Positions 14,894-38,957 of a stretch of 64,000 nt of DNA are shown here, piece by piece (within the stretch, counting starts at the first letter, position 1; each line of letters starts with the position of its first letter). The notes under the pieces are model-generated. The model ran no database searches. It saw only the letters and a program-made list of their open reading frames with translations, and was not told the origin of the DNA. The position numbers were made by a program, and so were the translations under genes. Origin of the DNA: Gemmatimonadota bacterium (GTDB taxonomy: Bacteria > Gemmatimonadota > Gemmatimonadetes > Gemmatimonadales > GWC2-71-9). The stretch is taken from the NCBI GenBank assembly GCA_003222085.1, contig QHUK01000010.1, forward strand, positions 3,688 to 67,687, written 5' to 3'.

Positions 14894-15039
14894 TAGAAGT
14901 TGAAATATATCAATAGCTTACCATCGAAGTAACGGGCCTTGCGATGTCCTTGATCTTCGGGATATATTCGGGTCCCATTTACTACCCGACAATGCCAAAA
15001 ACTCCCCACCTGACGAGCGAGTCCGCGGCTTGCTGTTGG

Positions 15040-16284
15040 ATGCCGCTGTTCGCGTTGCGCTCCGAACTGGCGCGGCGGCCCGAACTCGCGTCCCACCCCG
15101 TGGCGCTCGTCGCACCCGACACCGCTCGCACCCCTCGGGTGTGGCAGGTCGTGCCGCTCGCCCGGCACGCCGGGGTGAAGCCGGGAATGACGGTCAGCCA
15201 GGCGATCGGACTCTGTCCCGCGCTCAAGCTGTGCGAGCCCGACCCGGTGCATTACGACGAGCAGTTCGAGCAGCTCATCGCTGCACTTGCCGTGGTAAGC
15301 CCCGTCGTGGAGCCGGTGGAGTTGGGGCGGGTGTTCGTGGGCACCGACGGATTGGAAGGGCTGTACGGAGGGCCGGAGGAGATCGTCGAGGCGATCAAAC
15401 GCGGAACGCGGAAGTGGGAACGCGGAACAGGCGAGCGATCTTCCAGCCCCTGTTCCGCGTTCCGCGTTCCGCGTTTCGCGTTTCGGGTGGGCTGGGGCCG
15501 CGGGAAATTCGTTTCCTGGGTGGCCGCGACCCGCGCAAAACCCGGAGCTGCGGTCATAGTGCCGGTGGGAGGGGAGGCGAAGTTTCTCGCTTCCCAGCCG
15601 CTCGCCGTGCTCCCGCTCGACCCCGACACACATCGCCGGCTGCAGCAGCTCGGCGTCAAGACGCTGGGCGCGCTCGTCGCGCTTCCGGAGGAAGCCGTCG
15701 TGTCGCAATTCGGTGGCCCGGGCCGGCGGCTGTGGCGGCTCGCGGCGGGACTCGTGTCGGAGCCGGTGGTGGGACGGGTCGTGCCCGAGCCGATCGTGGC
15801 CGCTCTCACGTTTTTCACCCCGGTCGGCGAGCGGGACCTGCTCGCCCACGCACTGGACAAGCTCGTCGACCGCGCGCTCGGAGATCCGCGTCGCAGCGGC
15901 TGGCGCGTGCAGGTCGTCCGGGTGCGCGCCGAGCTCGAGCACGGCGCCTCCTGGCTCGTCACCGCGACCCTCAAAGACCCATCCGCGACGCGGGAGCACA
16001 TCGCGGCACCGCTCAAGACGCAGCTCGAGCGGTCGCCGCCCGTCGGTGCGGTCGAGCGGCTCGTCGTCGAGTTTACCGCCTTCGCTCCCGGCACCGCCGA
16101 GCTGCAGCTGTTCGCGCATGATGCGAGCGCCGCGGCTCGCGCCGGGCGACGGCGTGCGCTCCAAGGCGCCGCCCGGGAGATCGCGCTCCGAATCAGACGG
16201 CCGATGCTGTATCACGTCATCGAGGTGCAGCCATGGTCCCGCCTTCCCGAGCGGCGGTACGCGCTGATCGACTATGAACCGTGA
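15040..16284 (+). CDS. imuB: ImuB-like Y-family DNA polymerase homolog (mutasome subunit)
   Basis: 'MPLFALRSELARRPELASHPVALV...ARHAGVKPGMTVSQA' is the typical ImuB N-terminus, and the gene lies directly upstream of dnaE2. The ATG at 15040 is chosen over the listed 14944 start. There is a possible clamp-binding 'LQLF'. Confidence 0.8.
   Translation: MPLFALRSELARRPELASHPVALVAPDTARTPRVWQVVPLARHAGVKPGMTVSQAIGLCPALKLCEPDPVHYDEQFEQLIAALAVVSPVVEPVELGRVFVGTDGLEGLYGGPEEIVEAIKRGTRKWERGTGERSSSPCSAFRVPRFAFRVGWGRGKFVSWVAATRAKPGAAVIVPVGGEAKFLASQPLAVLPLDPDTHRRLQQLGVKTLGALVALPEEAVVSQFGGPGRRLWRLAAGLVSEPVVGRVVPEPIVAALTFFTPVGERDLLAHALDKLVDRALGDPRRSGWRVQVVRVRAELEHGASWLVTATLKDPSATREHIAAPLKTQLERSPPVGAVERLVVEFTAFAPGTAELQLFAHDASAAARAGRRRALQGAAREIALRIRRPMLYHVIEVQPWSRLPERRYALIDYEP
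15397..15486. repeat. GGAACGC-type heptamer hairpin element inside imuB
   Basis: The left arm is ggaacgc ggaagtg ggaacgc ggaacag. The loop is 17 nt. The right arm is cctgttcc gcgttcc gcgttcc gcgtttc gcgtttc. The ORF stays open and reads KRGTRKWERGTGERSSSPCSAFRVPRFAFRV. Confidence 0.8.
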
Positions 16285-16582
16285 ACAAACGCGGAAGTTG
16301 GAGCGCGGAACGCGGAACAATGCGGACAGGCTTCGGGCGCTCAACGTTCAGCAGCAGGTGAAGGTCGATCTGGATGACGGTGGAGTGCCGGTAGTCGTGA
16401 CACGGGAAACGGGAGATGGGAAACGTGTTGAGTCGATCGGTGAGACGTGGCGGATCGATGATGAATGGTGGCGATTGCCTATTGTGCGGCGATATGTGGA
16501 AGTGATTCTCGAAGGTGGCGGGCGGGTTGTGTTGTTCGAAGATCTGTCGACGGGCGAGTGGTGGATCCAGAAGCCCGCCTGA
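16274..16582 (+). CDS. Small ORF between imuB and dnaE2 with a 'WRIDDEWWR' motif (possibly a DUF6504-like ImuB-associated domain)
   Basis: The 102 aa ORF ends '...GETWRIDDEWWRLPIVRRYVEVILEGGGRVVLFEDLSTGEWWIQ'. It overlaps the imuB stop in the +1 frame. Its first ~20 codons are repeat-derived, so the true start is uncertain. The family assignment is from memory. Confidence 0.55.
   Translation: MNREQTRKLERGTRNNADRLRALNVQQQVKVDLDDGGVPVVVTRETGDGKRVESIGETWRIDDEWWRLPIVRRYVEVILEGGGRVVLFEDLSTGEWWIQKPA
16287..16320. repeat. GGAACGC-type heptamer array (left arm of a split pair)
   Basis: The sequence is aaacgc ggaagtt ggagcgc ggaacgc ggaacaa. It lies immediately after the imuB stop. Confidence 0.75.
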
Positions 16583-16617
16583 ACGTTCCGCGTTCCGACT
16601 TCCGCGTTCCAACTTCC
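16583..16617. repeat. GGAACGC-type heptamer array, inverted (right arm of a split pair)
   Basis: The sequence is acgttcc gcgttcc gacttcc gcgttcc aacttcc. Its reverse complement, ggaagtt ggaacgc ggaagtc ggaacgc ggaacgt, matches the 16287-16320 arm. It fills the whole spacer between the small ORF stop and the dnaE2 ATG. Confidence 0.75.
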
Positions 16618-19600
16618 ATGTACGTCGAGCTCCACTGCCACTCCGCTTTCTCGTTCCTCGACGGCGCCTCGCTCCCCGAGCAGCTCGCGCTCACCGCGTC
16701 GCAGCTCGGCTACCCCGCGCTCGCGCTCACCGACCACAACGGCCTGTACGGCTCGATGGCGTTCGCGCAAGAAGCGAAACAGCTCGGCATCCAGGCGATC
16801 ACCGGCGCGGAGCTGACCCTACTCGACGGCTCTCACGTGACGATTCTCGCGGAGACGCCTGAGGGGTACGCGAACCTCTGCCGGTTGATTACGGAGGCTC
16901 ATCTCGGTCGTGAAGACCGGCGCGACCCGCGGCTCGATTTCGCCTCGCTCGAAGCCCGGCACGCAGGGCTCATCGTGCTGTCGGGATGCCGCAACGGGCT
17001 GCTCCCTCAGGTGCTGCGGCGCGACGGCCCGGCCGCTGTCCGTCGCGTCGCCGAGCGGTGTCGTGCGGTGTTCGGGAAGGACAACTTTGTCGTCGAGCTG
17101 CAGCGCAATTATGTACGGGGCGATCTGGCCCTGACCCGGGCGCTGAAAGCCCTCGCGGACGACGCGCAGCTGGGCGTCGTGGCGTCGGGCAACGTGCATT
17201 ATCACGCCCGCCCGCGTCACCGTCTGCACGACGTGCTGGTGGCGATCCGGCACCGCACCACGCTCGACGGCTCGCACGACGTGCGGCATGCGAACAGCGA
17301 GTTCTTCCTGCGCCCGCACGAAGAGGTCGAGGCGCTGTTTCGTGACTGTCCGAATGCTGTCGCTAATACTCTAGCCCTGGCGGAGCGCTGCCGGGGGTTC
17401 GATCTCACGCGGGATCTGGGATATCGGTTTCCCGATTTCAACGGCGCCGAGCGCGCCCCCGCCCCGCGAGCGCTCGCCGAGCTGTGCCGGGCGAGACTGG
17501 AAGAGCGCTACCCTCCGGATTCCCCCCACCGCGACGCCGCGGAGCGGCGGCTCGCCGAGGAGCTGCGGCTGGTCGAGCACCATGCGCTCTCGGGGTTCTT
17601 TCTCGTCTATCACGACCTGTTCGACCTGGCCCGGGAAGTCGCCGTCGACGTGCGGCGCGGCTCGCGGCGGGCGCAGGGCGGCCTGCTCCCCGGTCGCGGT
17701 CGCGGCTCATCGGTCTCCTCCGTCGTGTGCTACCTGCTCGGCCTCTCGCACATCGACCCGGTCGCGACCCGGCTGTTCATCGGGCGGTTCCTGAGCGAGA
17801 CCCTCGCCTCGGTGCCGGACATCGACCTCGATTTCCCGCGCGAGATCCGCGAGGAGCTGATCCGGCGGGTGTACAAGCGGTACGGCGACGAGCACGTCGG
17901 GCTCGTCTGCTCGTTCCCCACCTATCGCCTGCGCTCGACGGTGCGGGAGATCGGCAAGGCGCTCGATCTGCCGCCGGGCGAGATCGAGCAGGTCGCGAAA
18001 CTGGCGGACCGGCGATCCGGCGGACTGGCGGACGAATTGGACCAGCTTCCCGGATTCGCGGGGCGACGGAGCGCGCCGCTCTGGAAAGAGCTGTGCGAGC
18101 TCGCCGAGGAGATCGCGGGGCTGCCGCGGCACATTTCCCAGCACGTGGGCGGGATGGTCATCTCGAGCCGGCCGCTCGTGGAGATCGTGCCGCTCGAGCG
18201 CGCCGCCATGGAAGACCGGGTGGTATGCCAGTGGGACAAGGATGCCTGCGACGACGCACGCTTCATCAAGATCGACTTCCTGGCGCTCGGCATGCTGTCG
18301 CTCGTGGAAGAGTGTGTCGAGCGGATCGCCGTGCACCAGGGAGCGCCACCCGACCTCTCGCGCATCGACTTCGAGGACCCCGCGGTGTACGACCGCATCT
18401 GCCGGGGCGACACGGTTGGACTGTTCCAGATCGAGAGCCGGGCGCAGATCCAGATGATCCGTCGCACCCGACCCACCAACCTCGAAGACCTGGCGGTCGA
18501 GGTCGCGATCGTGCGGCCCGGCCCGATCGTGGGAGGAGCGGTGAACCCGTACGTGCGACGCCGCGAGGAGCAGCGCCGCGCCCGGGCCGCCGGTCGCGCC
18601 TACGAGCCGCCGCTCGAGCATCCCCTGCTCAAGGAAGCGCTCGACGAAACGCTCGGCGTGATCCTCTATCAGGACCAGGTGCTGCAGGTGTGCCAGGCGC
18701 TCGCCGGATTCACGGCGGGCCAGGCCGAGGCCTTGCGGCGGGCGATGAGCCGGCGGCGCAGCCGCGAGTTGATGGCGGGGTTCTGGGAGGAGTTCAAGGA
18801 GGGCGCGGCGGCGCGCGGCGTCCCCGAGCAGACAGCAGAGCGCGTGTTCACACAGGTGATCGCGTTCTCGGAGTTCGGTTTCCCCAAGTCGCACGCCGCG
18901 GCGTTCGGCCTGCTCGCCTACCAGTCGGCGTGGCTCAGGCATTATCACCCGGCCGAGTACTATTGCGCCCTCTTCAACAACCAGCCGATGGGGTTCTACT
19001 CGCTCGACGCGCTGGGACGCGATGCCCAGCGGAACGGCGTCGAGATCCGGCTGCCGGATGTGAATCTGAGTGACGTATGGAGCACGATAGAGCGGGAAAG
19101 GGGAAACGGGAAACGGGAAACGGGAGGCGTTCGGATCGGGCTTGGGTTCGTGCGCGACTGGAGCGAGGAGACGGCGACGGCGGTCGTGATCGAGCGCGAG
19201 CGGCGCGGGCCGTACGCGAGTATCGGCGACTTCGTGCGCCGGGCGCCGCCCAAGCTCAAGCGCACCGCGATCGAGCATCTCGTGTGGGTGGGAGGATGCG
19301 ACGGCTTCGGGCTCACCCGGCGCGAGCTCCTGTGGCAGGTGGGGCTGTGGCTGCCTCCGGAATCGGAGCACGGGGTGGACGCGCGCGCACGGCGGCAGCT
19401 CGAGCTGGCGCTCAATCATCCCCACGAGGGACTCCGATTCGGCGGCCTCGAGGCGGCCGAGCGGCTGCTCGCGGAGTATGACGTCCTGGGGTTCGCCGCG
19501 AGCGGCCATCCGCTCTCGCTGCTCCGCGGGGCGCTGCCGCCGGGTATCGTGCAGAGCGACACGCTCCCCCGGCTCGAGCACGGAGCGTGGGTCGAAGTCG

Positions 19601-19953
19601 CCGGGCTGGTGGTCGCGCGCCAGCGACCCGAGACGGCGAAGGGATTCATATTTGTGCTGGTCGAGGATGAGGCGGGGATGGTGAACGTGATCGTGCGGCC
19701 CGACGTGTACGAGCGCTATCGCACCGCGGTCCGCGGCGAGCCGCTCTTGTGGGTGCGCGGTAAGCTCGCCAAGGACGACGGGACGGTGAACGTGATCGCG
19801 GAAGAGGCGAGGGGGCTCAAAGTCGGAACGTGGAACGCGGAAGGCGGAACGGACGGCGGGCCTGCCAGTTCCGCGTTCCCACTTCCGCATTCCGCGTTCG
19901 ACTTTCTTAAGTCCATGCGTCGCCTCGCGCCGGAGTCCAAGGATTGGGGGTAG
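16618..19953 (+). CDS. dnaE2: Error-prone DNA polymerase III alpha-like subunit DnaE2
   Basis: It has the PHP-domain N-terminus 'MYVELHCHSAFSFLDGASLPEQL...LALTDHNGLYG', a length of about 1111 aa, and sits in an imuB-dnaE2 arrangement. Confidence 0.9.
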   Translation: MYVELHCHSAFSFLDGASLPEQLALTASQLGYPALALTDHNGLYGSMAFAQEAKQLGIQAITGAELTLLDGSHVTILAETPEGYANLCRLITEAHLGREDRRDPRLDFASLEARHAGLIVLSGCRNGLLPQVLRRDGPAAVRRVAERCRAVFGKDNFVVELQRNYVRGDLALTRALKALADDAQLGVVASGNVHYHARPRHRLHDVLVAIRHRTTLDGSHDVRHANSEFFLRPHEEVEALFRDCPNAVANTLALAERCRGFDLTRDLGYRFPDFNGAERAPAPRALAELCRARLEERYPPDSPHRDAAERRLAEELRLVEHHALSGFFLVYHDLFDLAREVAVDVRRGSRRAQGGLLPGRGRGSSVSSVVCYLLGLSHIDPVATRLFIGRFLSETLASVPDIDLDFPREIREELIRRVYKRYGDEHVGLVCSFPTYRLRSTVREIGKALDLPPGEIEQVAKLADRRSGGLADELDQLPGFAGRRSAPLWKELCELAEEIAGLPRHISQHVGGMVISSRPLVEIVPLERAAMEDRVVCQWDKDACDDARFIKIDFLALGMLSLVEECVERIAVHQGAPPDLSRIDFEDPAVYDRICRGDTVGLFQIESRAQIQMIRRTRPTNLEDLAVEVAIVRPGPIVGGAVNPYVRRREEQRRARAAGRAYEPPLEHPLLKEALDETLGVILYQDQVLQVCQALAGFTAGQAEALRRAMSRRRSRELMAGFWEEFKEGAAARGVPEQTAERVFTQVIAFSEFGFPKSHAAAFGLLAYQSAWLRHYHPAEYYCALFNNQPMGFYSLDALGRDAQRNGVEIRLPDVNLSDVWSTIERERGNGKRETGGVRIGLGFVRDWSEETATAVVIERERRGPYASIGDFVRRAPPKLKRTAIEHLVWVGGCDGFGLTRRELLWQVGLWLPPESEHGVDARARRQLELALNHPHEGLRFGGLEAAERLLAEYDVLGFAASGHPLSLLRGALPPGIVQSDTLPRLEHGAWVEVAGLVVARQRPETAKGFIFVLVEDEAGMVNVIVRPDVYERYRTAVRGEPLLWVRGKLAKDDGTVNVIAEEARGLKVGTWNAEGGTDGGPASSAFPLPHSAFDFLKSMRRLAPESKDWG
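19094..19128. repeat. GGGAAAC heptamer tandem array inside dnaE2
   Basis: The array is gggaaag gggaaac gggaaac gggaaac gggaggc, translated as ERERGNGKRETGG. A related array, gggaaac gggagat gggaaac, occurs at 16404-16424 in the small ORF. Confidence 0.7.
19825..19899. repeat. GGAACGC-type heptamer hairpin element in the dnaE2 3' coding region
   Basis: The left arm is ggaacgt ggaacgc ggaaggc ggaacgg. The loop is 15 nt. The right arm is gttcc gcgttcc cacttcc gcattcc gcgttc. It shares a 21-nt identical stretch (gttccgcgttcccacttccgc) with the reverse complement of the imuB element arm. Confidence 0.8.
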
Positions 19954-21112: not shown

Positions 21113-21661
21113 ATGCCGCAACGCGAAGTGGCAACCCTCGCCGGCGGGTGCTTCTGGTGTCTGGAAGCCGCCTTCCAGGACTTGAAGGGTGTCGAGAAGG
21201 TTCAGTCGGGCTACGCCGGGGGGCGCGTGGCGAACCCGTCGTACGAGGACGTCTGCACCGGCACCACGGGCCACGCCGAGGTCGTGCAGATCACCTTCGA
21301 CCCCACCGTCGTGTCGTTCAACGACCTGCTCCACATCTTTTTCACGATTCACGATCCGACCACGCTCAACCGCCAGGGCGGGGACGTGGGCACCCAGTAC
21401 CGCTCGGCCGTCTTCTACCACACCCCGGAGCAGAAGACCGTGACGGAGCAGGTCATCAGGGAGCTCGAGGCGGAGCACATCTGGGACGATCCGATCGTGA
21501 CCGAGGTGAAGCCGCTCGAGGCCTTCTATCCGGCCGAGGAGTACCACCGCGACTACTATCGCCGCAACCCGAACCAGGGCTACTGCCGCGCGGTGATCGC
21601 GCCCAAAGTGGCCAAGGTCCGCAAGCTCTATTTCGACAGGCTGAAGCAATCGGCGAATTGA
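21113..21661 (+). CDS. msrA: Peptide-methionine (S)-S-oxide reductase
   Basis: It has the active-site motif '[15 protein letters not shown]' and '[12 protein letters not shown]'. The ATG at 21113 is preceded by AAAGGGGA. Confidence 0.9.
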
Positions 21662-21670
21662 GGAGACACG

Positions 21671-22105
21671 ATGCGCTGGTCGATATTTGCGCTGCTTGTC
21701 GCGGCGCCGGTGTTGGCGGCGGCCCAGGCGCCGCCCGCCGGCGCGAGTGAGCCGTTCGTGGTGGAGTATTACTACAAGACCCGCTGGGGCTTCGCCGACG
21801 AGTTCATCCGGCTCTTCAAGAAGAACCACTTCCCGGTATTGAAGCGCGAGATCGAGCTGGGGCACATCCAGCGGGTCACCGCGGAGGCACCGAGGTTCCA
21901 CGGGACCGAGGAGGGCCGCTGGGACTATCGCATAACGATCGTGTGGAAGAACGCCGCCGCACCGCACGAGCCGTTCCCCGAGGCGGAGCTCAAGCGCCTG
22001 TTTCCTGACCAGGACACGTTTCGGCGCGAAGAGCAGCGGCGTTTCGAAATCCTCGCCGCGCACTGGGACCTGCCGGTGGTCAGCGTGGATCTGACGCGGC
22101 CGTAA
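21671..22105 (+). CDS. Hypothetical secreted protein
   Basis: It has the signal peptide '[20 protein letters not shown]' and no recognisable family. Its 3' end overlaps the convergent lhr by 26 nt. Confidence 0.5.
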
Positions 22106-33280: not shown

Positions 33281-33358
33281 CCGTTCCGGGTGCGGAACCG
33301 GCGGGAGCGGGGAGTGTCACCTGCCCGGGTCACGACTGTCCTCCGCGCCGGCAACGGA

Positions 33359-33601
33359 TCAACGTGAGGGCGGCGGCGTCGGCTGCCGCATCAGCCCTAC
33401 GACTTCACCGGGCTCGGCGTGGCGTCCCTGGGCCTTCTTGGAGAAAATGCGGCGACCGTCGACCTCGACCTCGAAGACGCCGCCCGACGACTGGATCAGC
33501 TTCACGTCGGCGTGGGGGTAGGTCTTGCGAATTTCGGCCGCCAGACCGGCGGCGCGCGGCTCGTAGTTTCAGACGACGCAGTATTCGATCGTGACCCGCA
33601 T
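33359..33601 (-). CDS. selW: SelW/Rdx-family selenoprotein (in-frame UGA = Sec at codon 11)
   Basis: Manual translation gives MRVTIEYCVV[U]NYEPRAAGLAAEIRKTYPHADVKLIQSSGGVFEVEVDGRRIFSKKAQGRHAEPGEVVGLMRQPTPPPSR. The CxxU lies where the family has CxxC/CxxU. The 'GGVFEV..DG..IFSKK' core is present. The TGA is at 33569-33571, and a SECIS-like hairpin follows. Confidence 0.8.
33537..33553 (-). promoter_or_regulatory. Candidate bacterial SECIS hairpin
   Basis: On the minus-strand RNA, GCCGCC-GGUCU-GGCGGC forms a 6-bp stem with a 5-nt loop containing GU. It starts 15 nt after the in-frame UGA. Confidence 0.55.
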
Positions 33602-33665
33602 GCCGTAAACGATAGTCGCGCTTGACAGGTCATGCCAAGGGGCCGACTTTGCTCCCAGCTTCCCC

Positions 33666-35792
33666 ATGGCTGCCCTCTCCCGCCTCAAAGCGTCGCCGGG
33701 CCTGCTGGTACGGACGCTCGTCGCGCTCGGTGCCGTCGCAGCGATCGCCGCGGGGCTGGCGGCGTTCGCGACTCGACGGGTGCCGCTCGGCGCGGATGTC
33801 GCGGAGGAAATCGTGGTGCTCGTCGTGGTCGGCGCGCTGACCCGCCGCTACGGCATCGCCCTCCCGGGCAACGGGTTCGCCTCGTACATCCTCGGCGTCA
33901 CGGCGTACGCCATCCTCGACCGTGGCTGGCCTTTCGCCGTCCTCGTCGCGCCGCTCGCGGTGGTCGCGGGCGACCTCGCACTGCGCCGTCTGCCCGTGGC
34001 CGCGGCGCTCGACAACGCGGCGCACCTCACGACGGGCGCGGCCCTCGCCGGGCTCGCATACGCGCGACTCGGCGGGGCCAAGGACGCCCAGGCGCTCGCC
34101 GCGGGCAACCTCGTGCCCCTCGTCGTGTTCCTCGTCCTGCTTCCTTGCGTCGTGAACGGGACCTTCTACATCGAGTTGGCGCTCGGGCGTACGCTCGCCT
34201 GGGTCGACGCCGCACTCACCGCCCGATGGGAGGCCGTCGTCTACGCCTGCTCGGTGGGTCTGGCCCTCGCGTCCGTCGACCTTGCGCACGCGGGCCTCGA
34301 CATGATCGGGCTTCTGGTGATCGGCGCTCTACTCGTGGGCGCCGCCGTCGCGAGCGTGTCGGTCATCCGGCGGGGGGTTCGCGCCGATGAGCTCGCGCTC
34401 ATTCAGGGGTTGTCACAGGCGATGGCGCGGGACATCAGCCTGGCGAAGAGCTTCCCGCGGATTCAGGAGCTCGCCCGACGCCTGGTCCCGTGGGAGCACA
34501 TGGGCTTCGCGCGGTACGACGCGGGGACGAACGAGATGGAGCTCGTCGCGGACACGGCGACGGGCGATCGGGAGGGGCGAACGGTCCGCTTCGACGCGAA
34601 TGCGGGGCTCGCCGGCGAGGCCGTGCGGCTGCGGCGGCCGGTCGTGGGCCACGCGGTCTCCCCCGAGCACGTGCTCGTGCCGGGGCGGGAACCACCCGGC
34701 TCGGAGGTGCTGCTGCCGCTGTACCACGCCGGACAGCTGGTGGGCCTGTGGAGCGTGCGGCACTCGGATCCCACCATGTACCGTGACGCCGACGCCGACT
34801 TGCTGGAGCTGTTGGCGCCACAGCTGGCGCTGATGCTCGCGATCGAGGGCTCGGTTCTGCCGGTCGTCGGGGCGTCGGGTCGCACAAGCGCTTACGTGCA
34901 GACCCTGACCGCGACGGCCGAGGAGATCCACGCCGCGAGCCAGGAGGTGGCGGCCTCGGCGCGGCGCGCCAGCCAGGGAGCCGCCCAAGCGGCGAGCCTC
35001 GTGAGCGCGCTGGCCCGCGACTCGGAGCAGCTGACCCAGCACGCCGGCGAGGTGGCTGCCGCGGGGGCCCAGACCCGCGATTCGGGTGCACAGATGGAGC
35101 AGACCACCGAGAAGGTCCGTCTCGCGACCCAGACGGCGGTCCGTCGCCTCACGGATCTCGGTGTGACCACCGAAGAGAGTGCCCGCGAGGTGCGGCGCCT
35201 GCGCGACGTGGCAGAGCAGGTCGAGAAGTTCTCGGAAACGATCGGCTTCATCGCGAATCAGACGAACCTGCTCGCGCTCAACGCCACAATCGAAGCGGCG
35301 CGGGCCGGCGTGCACGGCCGCGGTTTCGCGGTGGTCGCGGACGAGGTCCACAAACTCGCCGAGGCGAGCGGTCGAGAGGCGCGCAACGTCGGCAAATCCG
35401 CCCAAGAGACCCGCCGGGCGCTCGACCGGGCCGCGCAGCTGCTCGAGCGTGTCCGAGGCGACCTCGGAGACGTCGTGCGCTCTTCGACCGACTGGGTGCA
35501 GGACCTGACGCGAATCGCGGAGGCAGCGGGCGGCACGGCGCGCGCCGGGAAGCAGGTCGCGGAGCTGGCGCAGGGCATCAGCGAGCGGGCGGGCAGGATC
35601 AGTCAGTCACTCGAGCAGGCCAGGGCGGGTGCTCACGCCTCTACTCAGGAAGCCGAAGCCGTCGCCGCCGCCGCCGCGGAACAGCTGCAGGCCATCGAAG
35701 GACTCGCTCACGGCGCGACCGAGCTGGCGGCGCTCGCCGACAACCTCGCCAGGGCCGTCCGGTTCGTGCGCGGCGAGAACGGGCGACAGTAG
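33666..35792 (+). CDS. Methyl-accepting chemotaxis-type protein with a polytopic membrane N-terminus and a GAF domain
   Basis: It has the highly conserved MCP hairpin '[38 protein letters not shown]', a GAF-like middle region ('...[21 protein letters not shown]'), and multiple N-terminal TM helices. Confidence 0.8.
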
Positions 35793-35886
35793 CTCGGTGA
35801 CCCACGTCACCACGTCCGTTCTCCGGGGTTTCTAACCGGAGCCCGAGTTATTACCGTAGGGCCGGCCCTAGAGGAGAAGCCGGTCC

Positions 35887-37335
35887 GTGCGGACACTCGC
35901 GGTCCTGGGAGTAGCGCTCGCGTGCGGGACCTCCGGCCTCGGTGCGCAGCGCGCGCACGAGTTCGAGTTCGGCGCGTTCGGATCGTTCACACGCTACGAC
36001 AGAGCCTTCAACCTCGACAACCGGATGGGCGGCGGCGGCCGGCTGGGCTATTTCTTCAGTAACGTCGTCAGCGCGGAGCTCGACGGGGGATATCAGAGCC
36101 CCAATCCGAAGACGGGCAGCGCCTCCCCCACACTCGCCCACGGCAGCGCGAGCCTGGTGCTGAATTTCGGCACCGCCCGCAACCTCTTCTATCTGCTCGG
36201 CGGCTATTCCCGGCTCGACTTCGAGAAGACGGCGCCATACCGCTTCACCGACGACGCCGTCCACGGCGCGATCGGCGACCGCATCTTTCTGGGCGACCGA
36301 GCCGCCCTGCGCCTCGAGGTGCGTGGCGTGTACGCGCCCAGCACGGGATTCGCCGGCGGCGACTGGGCGGGGCACGTCGTCGGCTCCCTCGGCTTGTCCG
36401 TCTTCACCCGGGGCGGCCCGGCAGCGGACACGGACACGGACCACGACGGGGTTCCCGACCAGCGGGATGTGTGCCCCGACACGCCCCTCGGCGCAGCGAC
36501 GGACGCGCGCGGCTGCCCCACTGACTCCGACCACGACGGGGTGTACGACGGCCTCGACCGGTGCCCCGGCACGCCCGCGGGGGCACGCGTCGACTCCAGA
36601 GGCTGCCCCGCCGATGCCGACGGCGATGGCGTGCTCGACGGCCTCGACCAGTGCCCCAGCACACCCGCCGGCGCGAGCGTGGACGCCAAGGGCTGCCCCG
36701 CCGATGCCGACGGCGACGGCGTGCTCGACGGCCTCGACCAGTGTCCCAGCACGCCCGCCGGCGCGGTGGTCGACGCGGTCGGCTGCCCGCTCGACGCGGA
36801 CAAGGACGGCGTCCCGGACGGACTCGACAAGTGTCCCAACACGCCGCCCGGGGCGGAGGTGGACGACGTCGGCTGCCAGCGCTTCAAGGACTCGGACGGC
36901 GACGGCGTGGACGACACGAAGGACCGCTGCCCGGGCACGCCCACCGGCACGCGCGTGGACGCCGCCGGCTGCCCGATTCTGTTCACGCCGGAGCGGACGC
37001 CGGTCATCCTGCGCGGCGTGATCTTCGAGACCGGCAAGTCGGCGCTCAAGCCCGAGTCGTTCACGGTCCTGGATATCGTCGCCCAGTCGCTCAACGCCAA
37101 TCCGGACATCCGGATCGAAATTGCCGGCTACACCGACAACACCGGCTCGGACGCCACCAACCTCCGCCTGTCGCAGGCCCGGGCGGACGCGGTGCGCGCG
37201 TACCTCGGGAGCAAGGGAGTCGCGCCGGGCCGCATGGTGACGAAGGGGTACGGCGCGACGAAACCGATCGCCCCGAATACGACGGTCGCGGGGCGCGCGC
37301 AAAACCGGCGCGTCGAACTGCACCAATTACCTTGA
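35887..37335 (+). CDS. OmpA-family outer membrane protein with a beta-barrel N-domain and thrombospondin type-3 repeats
   Basis: It has a signal peptide and about 6 repeats of 'D.D.DGV.D..D.CP.TP.G..VD..GCP'. The C-terminal OmpA domain reads 'IEIAGYTDNTGSDATNLRLSQARADAVRAYL...NRRVEL'. The start is GTG. Confidence 0.85.
   Translation: MRTLAVLGVALACGTSGLGAQRAHEFEFGAFGSFTRYDRAFNLDNRMGGGGRLGYFFSNVVSAELDGGYQSPNPKTGSASPTLAHGSASLVLNFGTARNLFYLLGGYSRLDFEKTAPYRFTDDAVHGAIGDRIFLGDRAALRLEVRGVYAPSTGFAGGDWAGHVVGSLGLSVFTRGGPAADTDTDHDGVPDQRDVCPDTPLGAATDARGCPTDSDHDGVYDGLDRCPGTPAGARVDSRGCPADADGDGVLDGLDQCPSTPAGASVDAKGCPADADGDGVLDGLDQCPSTPAGAVVDAVGCPLDADKDGVPDGLDKCPNTPPGAEVDDVGCQRFKDSDGDGVDDTKDRCPGTPTGTRVDAAGCPILFTPERTPVILRGVIFETGKSALKPESFTVLDIVAQSLNANPDIRIEIAGYTDNTGSDATNLRLSQARADAVRAYLGSKGVAPGRMVTKGYGATKPIAPNTTVAGRAQNRRVELHQLP
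36427..36969 (+). repeat. 90-bp (30-codon) tandem repeats encoding TSP3 calcium-binding repeats
   Basis: There are six consecutive units. Units 3 and 4 (about 36601-36780) are nearly identical at nucleotide level over their first ~70 nt. Confidence 0.8.
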
Positions 37336-37358
37336 GCGCGTTGCGCGCGGGAGCCGAC

Positions 37359-38957
37359 ATGAGACGGTTCGGGATGCTGGCGGCGGGGCTGGTGCTCGCC
37401 GCAGGACGCCTCGCAGCGCAGCACGCCGGGCAGGTCGAAGTCGGCGCGTTCGGCTCCTATACGCGTTACGACGCCACGTTCGGGCTCGCCCACAAGATCG
37501 GGGGCGGCGTCCGGCTGGGATACCTGCTGGGCAACATCGTCGGCGTGGAAGGCGACATCCTGTTTCAACCCGAGTACACCGTCTCACCGGGCGGCACGCC
37601 CACCACACTCGAGCCGTTGATCGGCAGCGCGTCCCTCGTGATCAACGCGGTGCATACGAGCCGACTCATGGTCTACGTGCTCGGCGGCTACTCGCTGCTC
37701 GACTTCGGCACGCGCGCGCCCTACAGCTTTACCGATAACGGCGCCCACGGCGGCGCCGGTATGCGCCTGTTCCTGACCGAGCGCATCGCGCTGCGCGCGG
37801 AGGGGCGGGCCATTTACAGCCCCAGCACCCGGTCGACGTTCGGCCCCAAGACGGCGACGCATTACGTTGCCACCGCGGGGCTCTCCGTGTTCCATCTGGG
37901 TACCCCGTCCAAGGATTCCGACCACGACGGCGTCCCCGACGCGAAGGACGCCTGCCCGGACACCCCCGCCGGAGCGGCCGTCGACTCGAAGGGTTGCCCC
38001 ATCGATTCCGACCATGACGGCGTGTACGATGGGATCGACAAGTGCCCCGGCACGCCGACGGGCGCGCACGTCGATGCGACGGGTTGCCCCACCGATAGCG
38101 ACGCCGACGGCGTCCCCGACGGGATCGATCAGTGCCCGGCCACGCCGGCGGGCGTGCACGTGGACGCGAAGGGCTGTCCGGTCGACTCCGATGGCGACGG
38201 CGTCCCCGATGGCGTCGACCAGTGTCCCAATACGCCCGCGGGCGTAACGGTCGACGCGGCCGGCTGCCCGCTGGACTCGGACAAGGATGGCGTCCCCGAC
38301 GGCATCGACAAGTGCCCCAACACGCCGGCCGGAGCCACGGTGGACGCGAGCGGGTGCCCGCTGGACGCGGACCTCGATGGCGTACCGGATGGGCTCGACC
38401 AATGTCCCAACACGCCGGCGGGCACCAAGGTAGATGCGGCAGGCTGCCCGCTGCCCGTCGGAGCGGTCAAGGCACCGGCGGCGGCGCCGCTCCCCACCCC
38501 CACCCCGCCCGGCAAGTGCCCGCCCACCCCGCCGGGGAGTCAGGTGGATGCGAACGGCTGTCTCATTCTGTTCACGCCCGAGGCCGCGCGGTCTGCGACG
38601 CCGGGTGCGCCGCCACGGCCCACGCTGATTCTGACCGGTGTGAACTTCGAGACCGGCCGGTCGGCCCTGACGCGCGACTCCTACATGGTGCTCGACGCGG
38701 TCGCGGCCTCGCTGCTCGCGAACCCGGACATCCGGATCGAGATCGCCGGATACACCGACAGTACCGGCACGAAATTCATGAACCTCCGGCTGTCGCAGGG
38801 GCGCGCCGCCGCCGTGCGCTTCTACCTCGCGCGCAAGGGCGTCGCGCCTGCCCGTATGGTTGCCAAGGGGTACGGCGCGTCGGGCTACATCGCGCCCAAC
38901 AGGACCGCGGCCGGGCGCGCGCAGAACCGTCGGGTGGAGCTGCACAAGCTGCCGTAG
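37359..38957 (+). CDS. OmpA-family outer membrane protein with TSP3 repeats (tandem paralog)
   Basis: It has the same architecture as the upstream gene. The signal peptide is 'MRRFGMLAAGLVLAAGRLAAQ'. It has about 6-7 TSP3 units and the OmpA domain 'IEIAGYTDSTGTKFMNLRLSQGRAAAVRFYL'. Confidence 0.85.
   Translation: MRRFGMLAAGLVLAAGRLAAQHAGQVEVGAFGSYTRYDATFGLAHKIGGGVRLGYLLGNIVGVEGDILFQPEYTVSPGGTPTTLEPLIGSASLVINAVHTSRLMVYVLGGYSLLDFGTRAPYSFTDNGAHGGAGMRLFLTERIALRAEGRAIYSPSTRSTFGPKTATHYVATAGLSVFHLGTPSKDSDHDGVPDAKDACPDTPAGAAVDSKGCPIDSDHDGVYDGIDKCPGTPTGAHVDATGCPTDSDADGVPDGIDQCPATPAGVHVDAKGCPVDSDGDGVPDGVDQCPNTPAGVTVDAAGCPLDSDKDGVPDGIDKCPNTPAGATVDASGCPLDADLDGVPDGLDQCPNTPAGTKVDAAGCPLPVGAVKAPAAAPLPTPTPPGKCPPTPPGSQVDANGCLILFTPEAARSATPGAPPRPTLILTGVNFETGRSALTRDSYMVLDAVAASLLANPDIRIEIAGYTDSTGTKFMNLRLSQGRAAAVRFYLARKGVAPARMVAKGYGASGYIAPNRTAAGRAQNRRVELHKLP
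37914..38444 (+). repeat. 90-bp tandem repeats encoding TSP3 repeats
   Basis: There are six consecutive 'CP.DSD.DGVPDG.D.CP.TPAG..VDA.G' units. Confidence 0.8.

Follow-up and report, generated by a model that had tools for sequence, protein, structure and literature searches.

The window, by which we mean the whole 64-kb stretch of DNA that was analyzed, has a G+C content of 69%, and the GC3 of its real genes is ~0.85-0.92. Its minus strand carries a short reading frame whose ATG (33601-33599) lies 64 bp (33602-33665) from the start codon of a divergent, plus-strand gene for a GAF-domain methyl-accepting chemotaxis protein (GAF-MCP; ATG 33666). The first-pass annotation had described this frame as 80 codons running from ATG 33601 to TGA 33359 with one internal TGA at 33569-33571, and we reproduced both the coordinates and the conceptual translation exactly: MRVTIEYCVV, the internal stop, then NYEPRAAGLAAEIRK...PPPSR and the terminal stop. 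The internal TGA, at codon 11, is the only one within the frame; it is reached from Cys8 through the codons TGC, GTC and GTC, and 69 sense codons separate it from the terminal TGA. Such a gene had been expected to be split by ORF finders, and the mechanical ORF list indeed holds for this locus just a 48-aa tail (33359..33505). The features of the locus are as follows.

33359..33601, minus strand: complete coding sequence of a predicted SelW-like (Rdx family) selenoprotein, 80 codons plus TGA stop, Sec at codon 11
33578..33580, minus strand: Cys8 codon TGC, first residue of the CxxU redox motif
33569..33571, minus strand: in-frame UGA predicted to be read as selenocysteine, codon 11
33537..33553, minus strand: putative bacterial SECIS apical hairpin inside the ORF, GCCGCC-GGUCU-GGCGGC
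33359..33361, minus strand: terminal TGA stop of the selW-like gene, codon 81
33609..33638, minus strand: sigma-70-like promoter, TTGGCA (33638-33633), 18 nt, TATCGT (33614-33609)

The window shares its arrangement of genes with loci L001 and L002, in which the GAF-MCP gene also lies divergently upstream and genes for a helicase, an HTH_8 protein and LytB lie downstream. Synteny with the metagenomic loci L091-L093 extends over >20 kb (window 22083-47267) in the order Lhr helicase, LytB, HTH_8 regulator, DEAD-like helicase, selW, GAF-MCP, OmpA, M14 peptidase, DUF4015, aconitase and M28 peptidase. Small insertions are lineage specific: a GFO/IDH/MocA oxidoreductase in the window, PFK in L091 and DUF2167 in L001. 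In the plus-strand region 35872-38957, genes for two paralogous outer-membrane proteins stand in tandem; each product combines a beta-barrel with thrombospondin type-3 repeats and an OmpA domain, and this pair adjoins the MCP gene in L001, L002 and L091 as well. Elsewhere in the window (14917-19953, plus strand), a second gene of the DNA polymerase III alpha type comes after an ORF of the impB/mucB/samB family (Y-family polymerase-like), an arrangement that resembles the imuB-dnaE2 damage-inducible mutagenesis cassette.

For homology searches with the 80-aa product, the UGA was replaced by Cys. The first-pass annotation had assigned the protein to the Rdx/SelW family and had named PF10262 as the model with which to check this. 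Pfam Rdx (PF10262) matched the substituted translation with an E-value of 7e-22 and 77.8 bits (cut-off 22.6), and since the match covers residues 2-72, it runs through the UGA. The NCBIfam model NF041051, "SelT/SelW/SelH family (seleno)protein" (104.4 bits vs. a cut-off of 88), and TIGR02174 CXXU_selWTH (64.7 bits vs. 34.2) matched as well, so that family membership holds at the curated cut-offs of all these models. Sequence matches in the PDB were the SelW-related proteins 2fa8 (2.4e-10), 3dex, 2obk, 2oka, 2ojl and 2p0g, together with human MIEN1 (2ljk). The redox motif of the window protein reads Cys8-Val-Val-Sec11 (CxxU), and in alignments with 2fa8, 3dex and 2ljk the UGA takes the place of the second Cys of their CxxC; it thus falls at the second redox position of these solved Cys-form homologs, as had been claimed.

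The fold was modeled on P0004, a natural Cys ortholog with 76% identity to the window protein. In the AlphaFold2 model (pLDDT 91.8), strand beta1 spans residues 2-8 and helix alpha1 spans residues 14-27, which puts the CxxC/U motif in the beta1-alpha1 loop. Foldseek placed 2fa8 at the top (TM 0.90, rmsd 1.5 Å), followed by other bacterial SelW-related structures, MIEN1 (TM 0.76), mouse SelW (2npb; TM 0.71) and then thioredoxins and glutaredoxin. On the basis of this model, the window product is predicted to have the thioredoxin-like fold of SelW-related proteins. The Cys-form Rdx structures from Agrobacterium (Atu0228, 2fa8), Streptomyces (SAV_2001, 3dex), Pseudomonas (2obk and 2oka) and Vibrio (2p0g) resemble it in sequence (E-values of 2.4e-10 to 3e-4 against the window protein), in structure (TM 0.85-0.90 and rmsd 1.1-2.0 Å against the P0004 model) and in the location of the motif in the beta1-alpha1 loop, whereas they have CxxC and ~20 extra residues in place of a CxxU that needs recoding. 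Mammalian SelW and MIEN1 share the Rdx fold, and mammalian SelW has CxxU with Sec at the same position, although their identity to P0004 is just ~27-28%. Eukaryotic SelW also differs in its use of a 3'-UTR SECIS and SBP2/eEFSec. The partners of eukaryotic SelW-type proteins include 14-3-3; we know of no bacterial counterpart to partners of the 14-3-3 type.

A TGA at a redox Cys codon might mean no more than that a Cys-form Rdx gene has suffered a nonsense mutation (TGC/TGT to TGA), or a sequencing error, which left a non-functional fragment. The step from TGC to TGA takes one substitution, and gene callers treat the gene in just this way, with public ortholog entries that start after the UGA. 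We therefore turn to the conservation of the codon among relatives. One genome per GTDB species was scanned, 432 relatives were found and the best 80 of these were fetched, all of them Gemmatimonadales or Gemmatimonadota MAGs. Because the peptide patterns able to match TGA-form loci sit downstream of the UGA, the scan was without bias to TGA. In each of these 80 species-level genomes (best 80 of 432), whose proteins range from ~57 to 94% identity, TGA was present at the CxxU codon, and the frame was otherwise uninterrupted, with no frameshifts or extra stops. The amino acid Cys8 was invariant across the same 80 loci (TGC in 77, TGT in 3), while Ile5 was encoded by ATC (57 loci), ATT (17) or ATA (5) and Thr4 by four different codons; throughout codons 2-10, amino acids were kept in the presence of synonymous variation, and codon-level conservation was seen on both sides of the UGA. 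Amino acids kept through synonymous codon change upstream of the UGA are a signature of translation in that frame, and the alignments argue that the ten codons 5' of the UGA are under protein-level purifying selection. This selection and the presence of the same TGA in every one of the 80 genomes count against a decayed or misread gene. The comparative data effectively refute that explanation, to which we assign a negligible probability.

Orthologs with Cys also exist. TGT or TGC stands at the Sec codon in L002-L004 and L085-L088, which are syntenic or related Cys forms from metagenomes, and L002 (a TGT form) shares its gene neighborhood with the window and L001, both of which are TGA forms. 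The ortholog comparison that had been proposed at first pass thus returned a conserved UGA or Cys codon at this position in place of scattered stops or frameshifts, and the gene has the comparative hallmarks of a selenoprotein gene: a conserved UGA, Cys-aligned orthologs and coding conservation on both sides.

Two of the metagenomic loci have peculiarities of their own. At L089 (1251-1481; P0015), a syntenic locus with the helicase directly downstream, CTG (Leu) replaces the Sec/Cys codon (CVVLNYEP), and its product may be a redox-dead derivative. The forest-soil contig L088 (1230-1742) carries two tandem Rdx genes. The upstream one has TGA (VIEYCGM, the UGA, then GYQSRAAG...) and was split by the gene caller; its immediate downstream neighbor encodes Cys (KIEYCVVCNYYPRAAG...).

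The relatives returned by the protein search, all from Gemmatimonadetes or metagenomes, were of three kinds. Some are full length with Cys at the Sec position (e.g., P0002, P0004 and P0009), and others are full-length JGI calls with W at the codon (P0001, P0006 and P0020), meaning that the TGA was translated under another code. Many more are fragments of 47-65 aa that begin at different codons after the UGA, including P0019, P0022, P0024-P0030, P0036, P0040 and P0043 (from NCBI MAGs and JGI); the NCBI fragments start "MAAEIRK" and carry names such as "hypothetical protein" and "SelT/SelW/selH family protein." Nearly all database entries of the orthologs lack the CxxU active site, and the earlier remark that this family is easily missed in annotation is borne out by these public fragments, from which the UGA part is gone.

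Read literally, such entries would mean that there is no recoding: a 10-codon ORF, perhaps a leader peptide, would stop at the UGA, and an Rdx-like protein would be made from a downstream CTG, GTG or ATG, for instance GTG 33505. Codons of this sort do exist, the 48-aa ORF is listed and the "MAAEIRK" entries have precisely such a start. The product would, however, be without strand beta1 and the family-defining CxxU/CxxC motif, whereas the Cys-form orthologs are one continuous protein with the same N-terminus. The supposed start codons are not conserved either, as is also seen in the differing first codons of the annotated fragments. We consider internal initiation of this kind very unlikely.

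The UGA is followed, inside the ORF, by a hairpin that starts 15 nt after it and consists of a 5' arm, GCCGCC (33553-33548), a loop, GGUCU (33547-33543), and a 3' arm, GGCGGC (33542-33537), so that 21 nt (33568-33548) lie between the UGA and the loop. A seventh pair (33554/33536) is formed in most relatives and is a C-C mismatch in the window. The consensus bacterial SECIS model allows 3-9 nt for the loop and 4-16 bp for the stem, calls for G at one or both of the first two loop positions (G then G or U) and sets a distance of 16-37 nt from the UGA and an MFE of at most -7.5 kcal/mol (PMC13188914). All of these values accommodate the window hairpin, with its 5-nt loop beginning GG, its stem of 6 bp (7 bp in most relatives), its spacing of 21 nt and its energy of -12.8 kcal/mol (21-nt hairpin).

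Selection on the RNA itself is apparent from an ungapped alignment of 79 distinct TGA-form sequences, drawn from the best 80 of the 432 relatives. The 7-bp helix (columns 30-36 with 42-48) was paired in 93.7% of cells, vs. 15-58% when the helix partner was slid 1 to 3 columns either way as a control. Both-side changes occurred at four helix pairs, none of 500 column shuffles reached any observed measure, and RNAalifold independently predicted the same hairpin. Two pairs, 30:48 (GC 53, AU 12, CG 6, GU 1 and 7 unpaired, among them the C-C of the window) and 33:45 (CG 66, UG 10, GC 2 and GU 1, broken in no sequence), connect synonymous third positions. At L061, replacements of Ala by Ile (GCC to AUC) and of Ala by Met (GCG to AUG) turn two G-C/C-G pairs into A-U/U-A and keep the pairing. 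Synonymous entropy at codons 18-21 was 0-0.34 bits, compared with 1.2-1.9 bits at the other four-fold sites of the gene. Gly19 was GGT in 73 of 74 cases, a codon that accounts for 9% of all Gly in the window's genes and for 2-28% at the other Gly positions of the selW-like gene, and the loop started with GGU in 72 of the 79 sequences (AGU in 6, GGG in 1).

Several observations qualify this picture. Relative to shuffles of such GC-rich sequence, the folding energy was unexceptional (z = -1.85 for the hairpin alone and -0.6 to -1.0 with flanks), and an A-C mismatch lay mid-stem (pair 34:44) in 28 of the 79 sequences. Since the stem codes for a conserved Ala-Ala-Gly-Leu-Ala-Ala and since Cys-form genes retain much of it, the pairing is partly a coding by-product or a fossil. 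Of six Cys- or Leu-form loci examined, three have lost GGU (L002 GGC, L086 GCA and L089 GCG), and L004, a near-identical copy of L002, additionally breaks the loop-closing pair (GCA). Rfam returned nothing relevant over the whole window at gathering thresholds or over 33300-33700 at permissive E-values, with no family for the hairpin. The covariation and the frozen synonymous sites lend indirect support to a role for the hairpin as an in-ORF bacterial SECIS, a putative site of SelB binding and recoding.

The putative SECIS can be compared with that of Escherichia coli fdhF, which is likewise a hairpin directly after the UGA in the ORF, with the apex GGUCUG in the same frame (GGU CUG, Gly-Leu) and with G and U in the loop. 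The fdhF loop starts 18 nt after the UGA rather than 21 nt, and it is a GGUC tetraloop closed by A-U, whereas the window hairpin has a 5-nt loop closed by C-G. The bulged U of the fdhF SECIS has no counterpart in the window hairpin, though many relatives have the A-C stem mismatch. The Moorella thermoacetica fdhA SECIS, known from SelB co-crystals, has the same GCC-GGUCU-GGC apex.

No selA, selB, selD or tRNA-Sec gene (selC) was found within the 64-kb window, where ARAGORN detected no tRNA and Pfam scans of 40 candidate ORFs detected no SelA, SelB or SelD domains. Likewise, tRNA-Sec was absent from the 85 loci scanned, out of 87 fetched from relatives and metagenomes, in which the sole tRNA was one tRNA-Val, and no Sec machinery was present in ~0.5 Mb of flanks from relatives. 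The conserved UGA and the SECIS-like hairpin suggest that the host possesses the machinery for Sec synthesis and insertion.

Other places at which a TGA might be recoded were also considered. Two in-frame TGA junctions, one at 21659-61 and the other at 45618-20, were rejected as recoding sites because each is an ordinary boundary of adjacent genes. At the former, an MsrA-like ORF (~21113-21661, plus strand), known by its GCFWC motif alone and having Cys rather than Sec, ends at the TGA, and a separate gene for a signal-peptide protein (21662-22105, plus strand) follows in frame. A crude scan of the window for a TGA followed by a hairpin gave 14 other candidates, which we judged to be likely antisense-frame artifacts of GC-rich sequence; the same scan missed the selW-like gene itself.

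The UGA could also be decoded as something other than Sec, either by near-cognate read-through (Trp or Cys) or by a lineage-wide reassignment like that of genetic codes 4 and 25. The JGI calls with W take this form, and the lack of Sec machinery in the 64-kb window would fit it. UGA also terminates many confident window genes, however, as well as the selW-like gene itself; it is therefore an ordinary stop in this genome, which excludes genome-wide reassignment and makes recoding at codon 11 dependent on local context. Moreover, the UGA occupies a redox Cys position in a family with well-documented Sec forms (PMC1088965, PMC2398784), and it is followed by a constrained, covarying hairpin of the SECIS-model type, a feature that SelB-dependent insertion, unlike passive read-through, would lead one to expect. 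Decoding as another amino acid thus seems improbable to us. The preferred reading, in which we have high confidence, is that the gene at the window locus is functional and encodes a SelW-like (Rdx family) selenoprotein of 80 residues, with an in-ORF SECIS. The frame, the family, the conserved UGA, the Cys orthologs, the RNA-level constraint and covariation, and the fold support it directly.

The sigma-70-like promoter upstream of the gene was the one site found with its pattern, where shuffles gave an expectation of 0.0. Its -10 hexamer stops 7 nt short of ATG 33601 and a Shine-Dalgarno sequence is absent, which points to a leaderless mRNA that probably starts at or beside the AUG. When the 80 nt 5' of the ATG were compared across L001-L084, the block GTGTCAAGCGCGACTATCGTT, which includes the promoter spacer, was near-invariant in most closer relatives, Cys forms included. 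Because 1-nt indels occur among relatives between the TATCGT box and the ATG, the block is non-coding, and it may mark an operator. An in-frame ATG at 33667, which would add 22 codons to the gene, was rejected as coding, given the 1-nt indels in relatives and invariant third positions. Distant relatives have the promoter CCCTTGGCAT-N17-CTACGATTCGC (TTGGCAT-N17-TACGAT) and a ~35-nt leader with GGAG.

We infer the following course of expression from these sequence features. The transcript would begin at or beside the AUG, and the ribosome would meet the UGA at codon 11, where the hairpin would act as a SECIS and recruit SelB-GTP-Sec-tRNA(Sec), such that Sec, and with it selenium, would be inserted in a SelB-dependent manner without termination. 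The UGA at codon 81, with no such hairpin, would terminate translation. Going by the modeled fold and the motif, Cys8 and Sec11 would most likely cycle between the selenolate/thiol and a Cys-Sec selenenylsulfide, and the protein would most likely serve as a thiol-dependent oxidoreductase acting on a redox substrate.

SelW-like proteins with CxxU and an in-ORF SECIS were the most abundant prokaryotic selenoprotein family in surveys of the Sargasso Sea and GOS metagenomes (PMC1088965, PMC2398784). The window protein is like these bacterial selenoproteins in belonging to the same family by HMM cut-offs, in its small size, in its N-terminal CxxU with Sec second, in the in-ORF SECIS candidate just after the UGA and in the coexistence of Sec and Cys orthologs. 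It differs in its host, a soil member of the Gemmatimonadales, and in that the Sec form is fixed in 80 of 80 species sampled (the best 80 of 432 relatives), which makes the host range mildly new. No paper in the literature searched links Gemmatimonadetes/Gemmatimonadota to selenocysteine use in any substance, and the survey of Peng et al. (2016), with its supplements, does not mention the phylum Gemmatimonadota. The gene is an unannotated addition to a bacterial selenoprotein family that is well known and whose members are routinely shortened by gene finders.

A broader proposal, which we advance only tentatively and think rather doubtful as a whole, is that Sec decoding may be an undocumented and near-universal trait of aerobic soil Gemmatimonadales, for which the SelW-like protein would be the flagship client. 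In the window's clade, the same proposal would add a leaderless mRNA with SelB/SECIS recoding at codon 11, no more than ~55 nt from the 5' end, with expression under a promoter/operator block that is strongly conserved and common to the divergent GAF-MCP gene, which would hint at redox- or selenium-responsive control.

The finding leaves the understanding of selenocysteine insertion and of SelW-like proteins unchanged. The 79-sequence alignment offers a clean natural case of RNA structure constrained in a coding region, with compensatory amino-acid changes that keep the pairing. Correcting the annotation would restore a redox-active selenoprotein whose active-site half is missing in dozens of Gemmatimonadales genomes, and the gene implies a selenium dependence of an abundant soil lineage.
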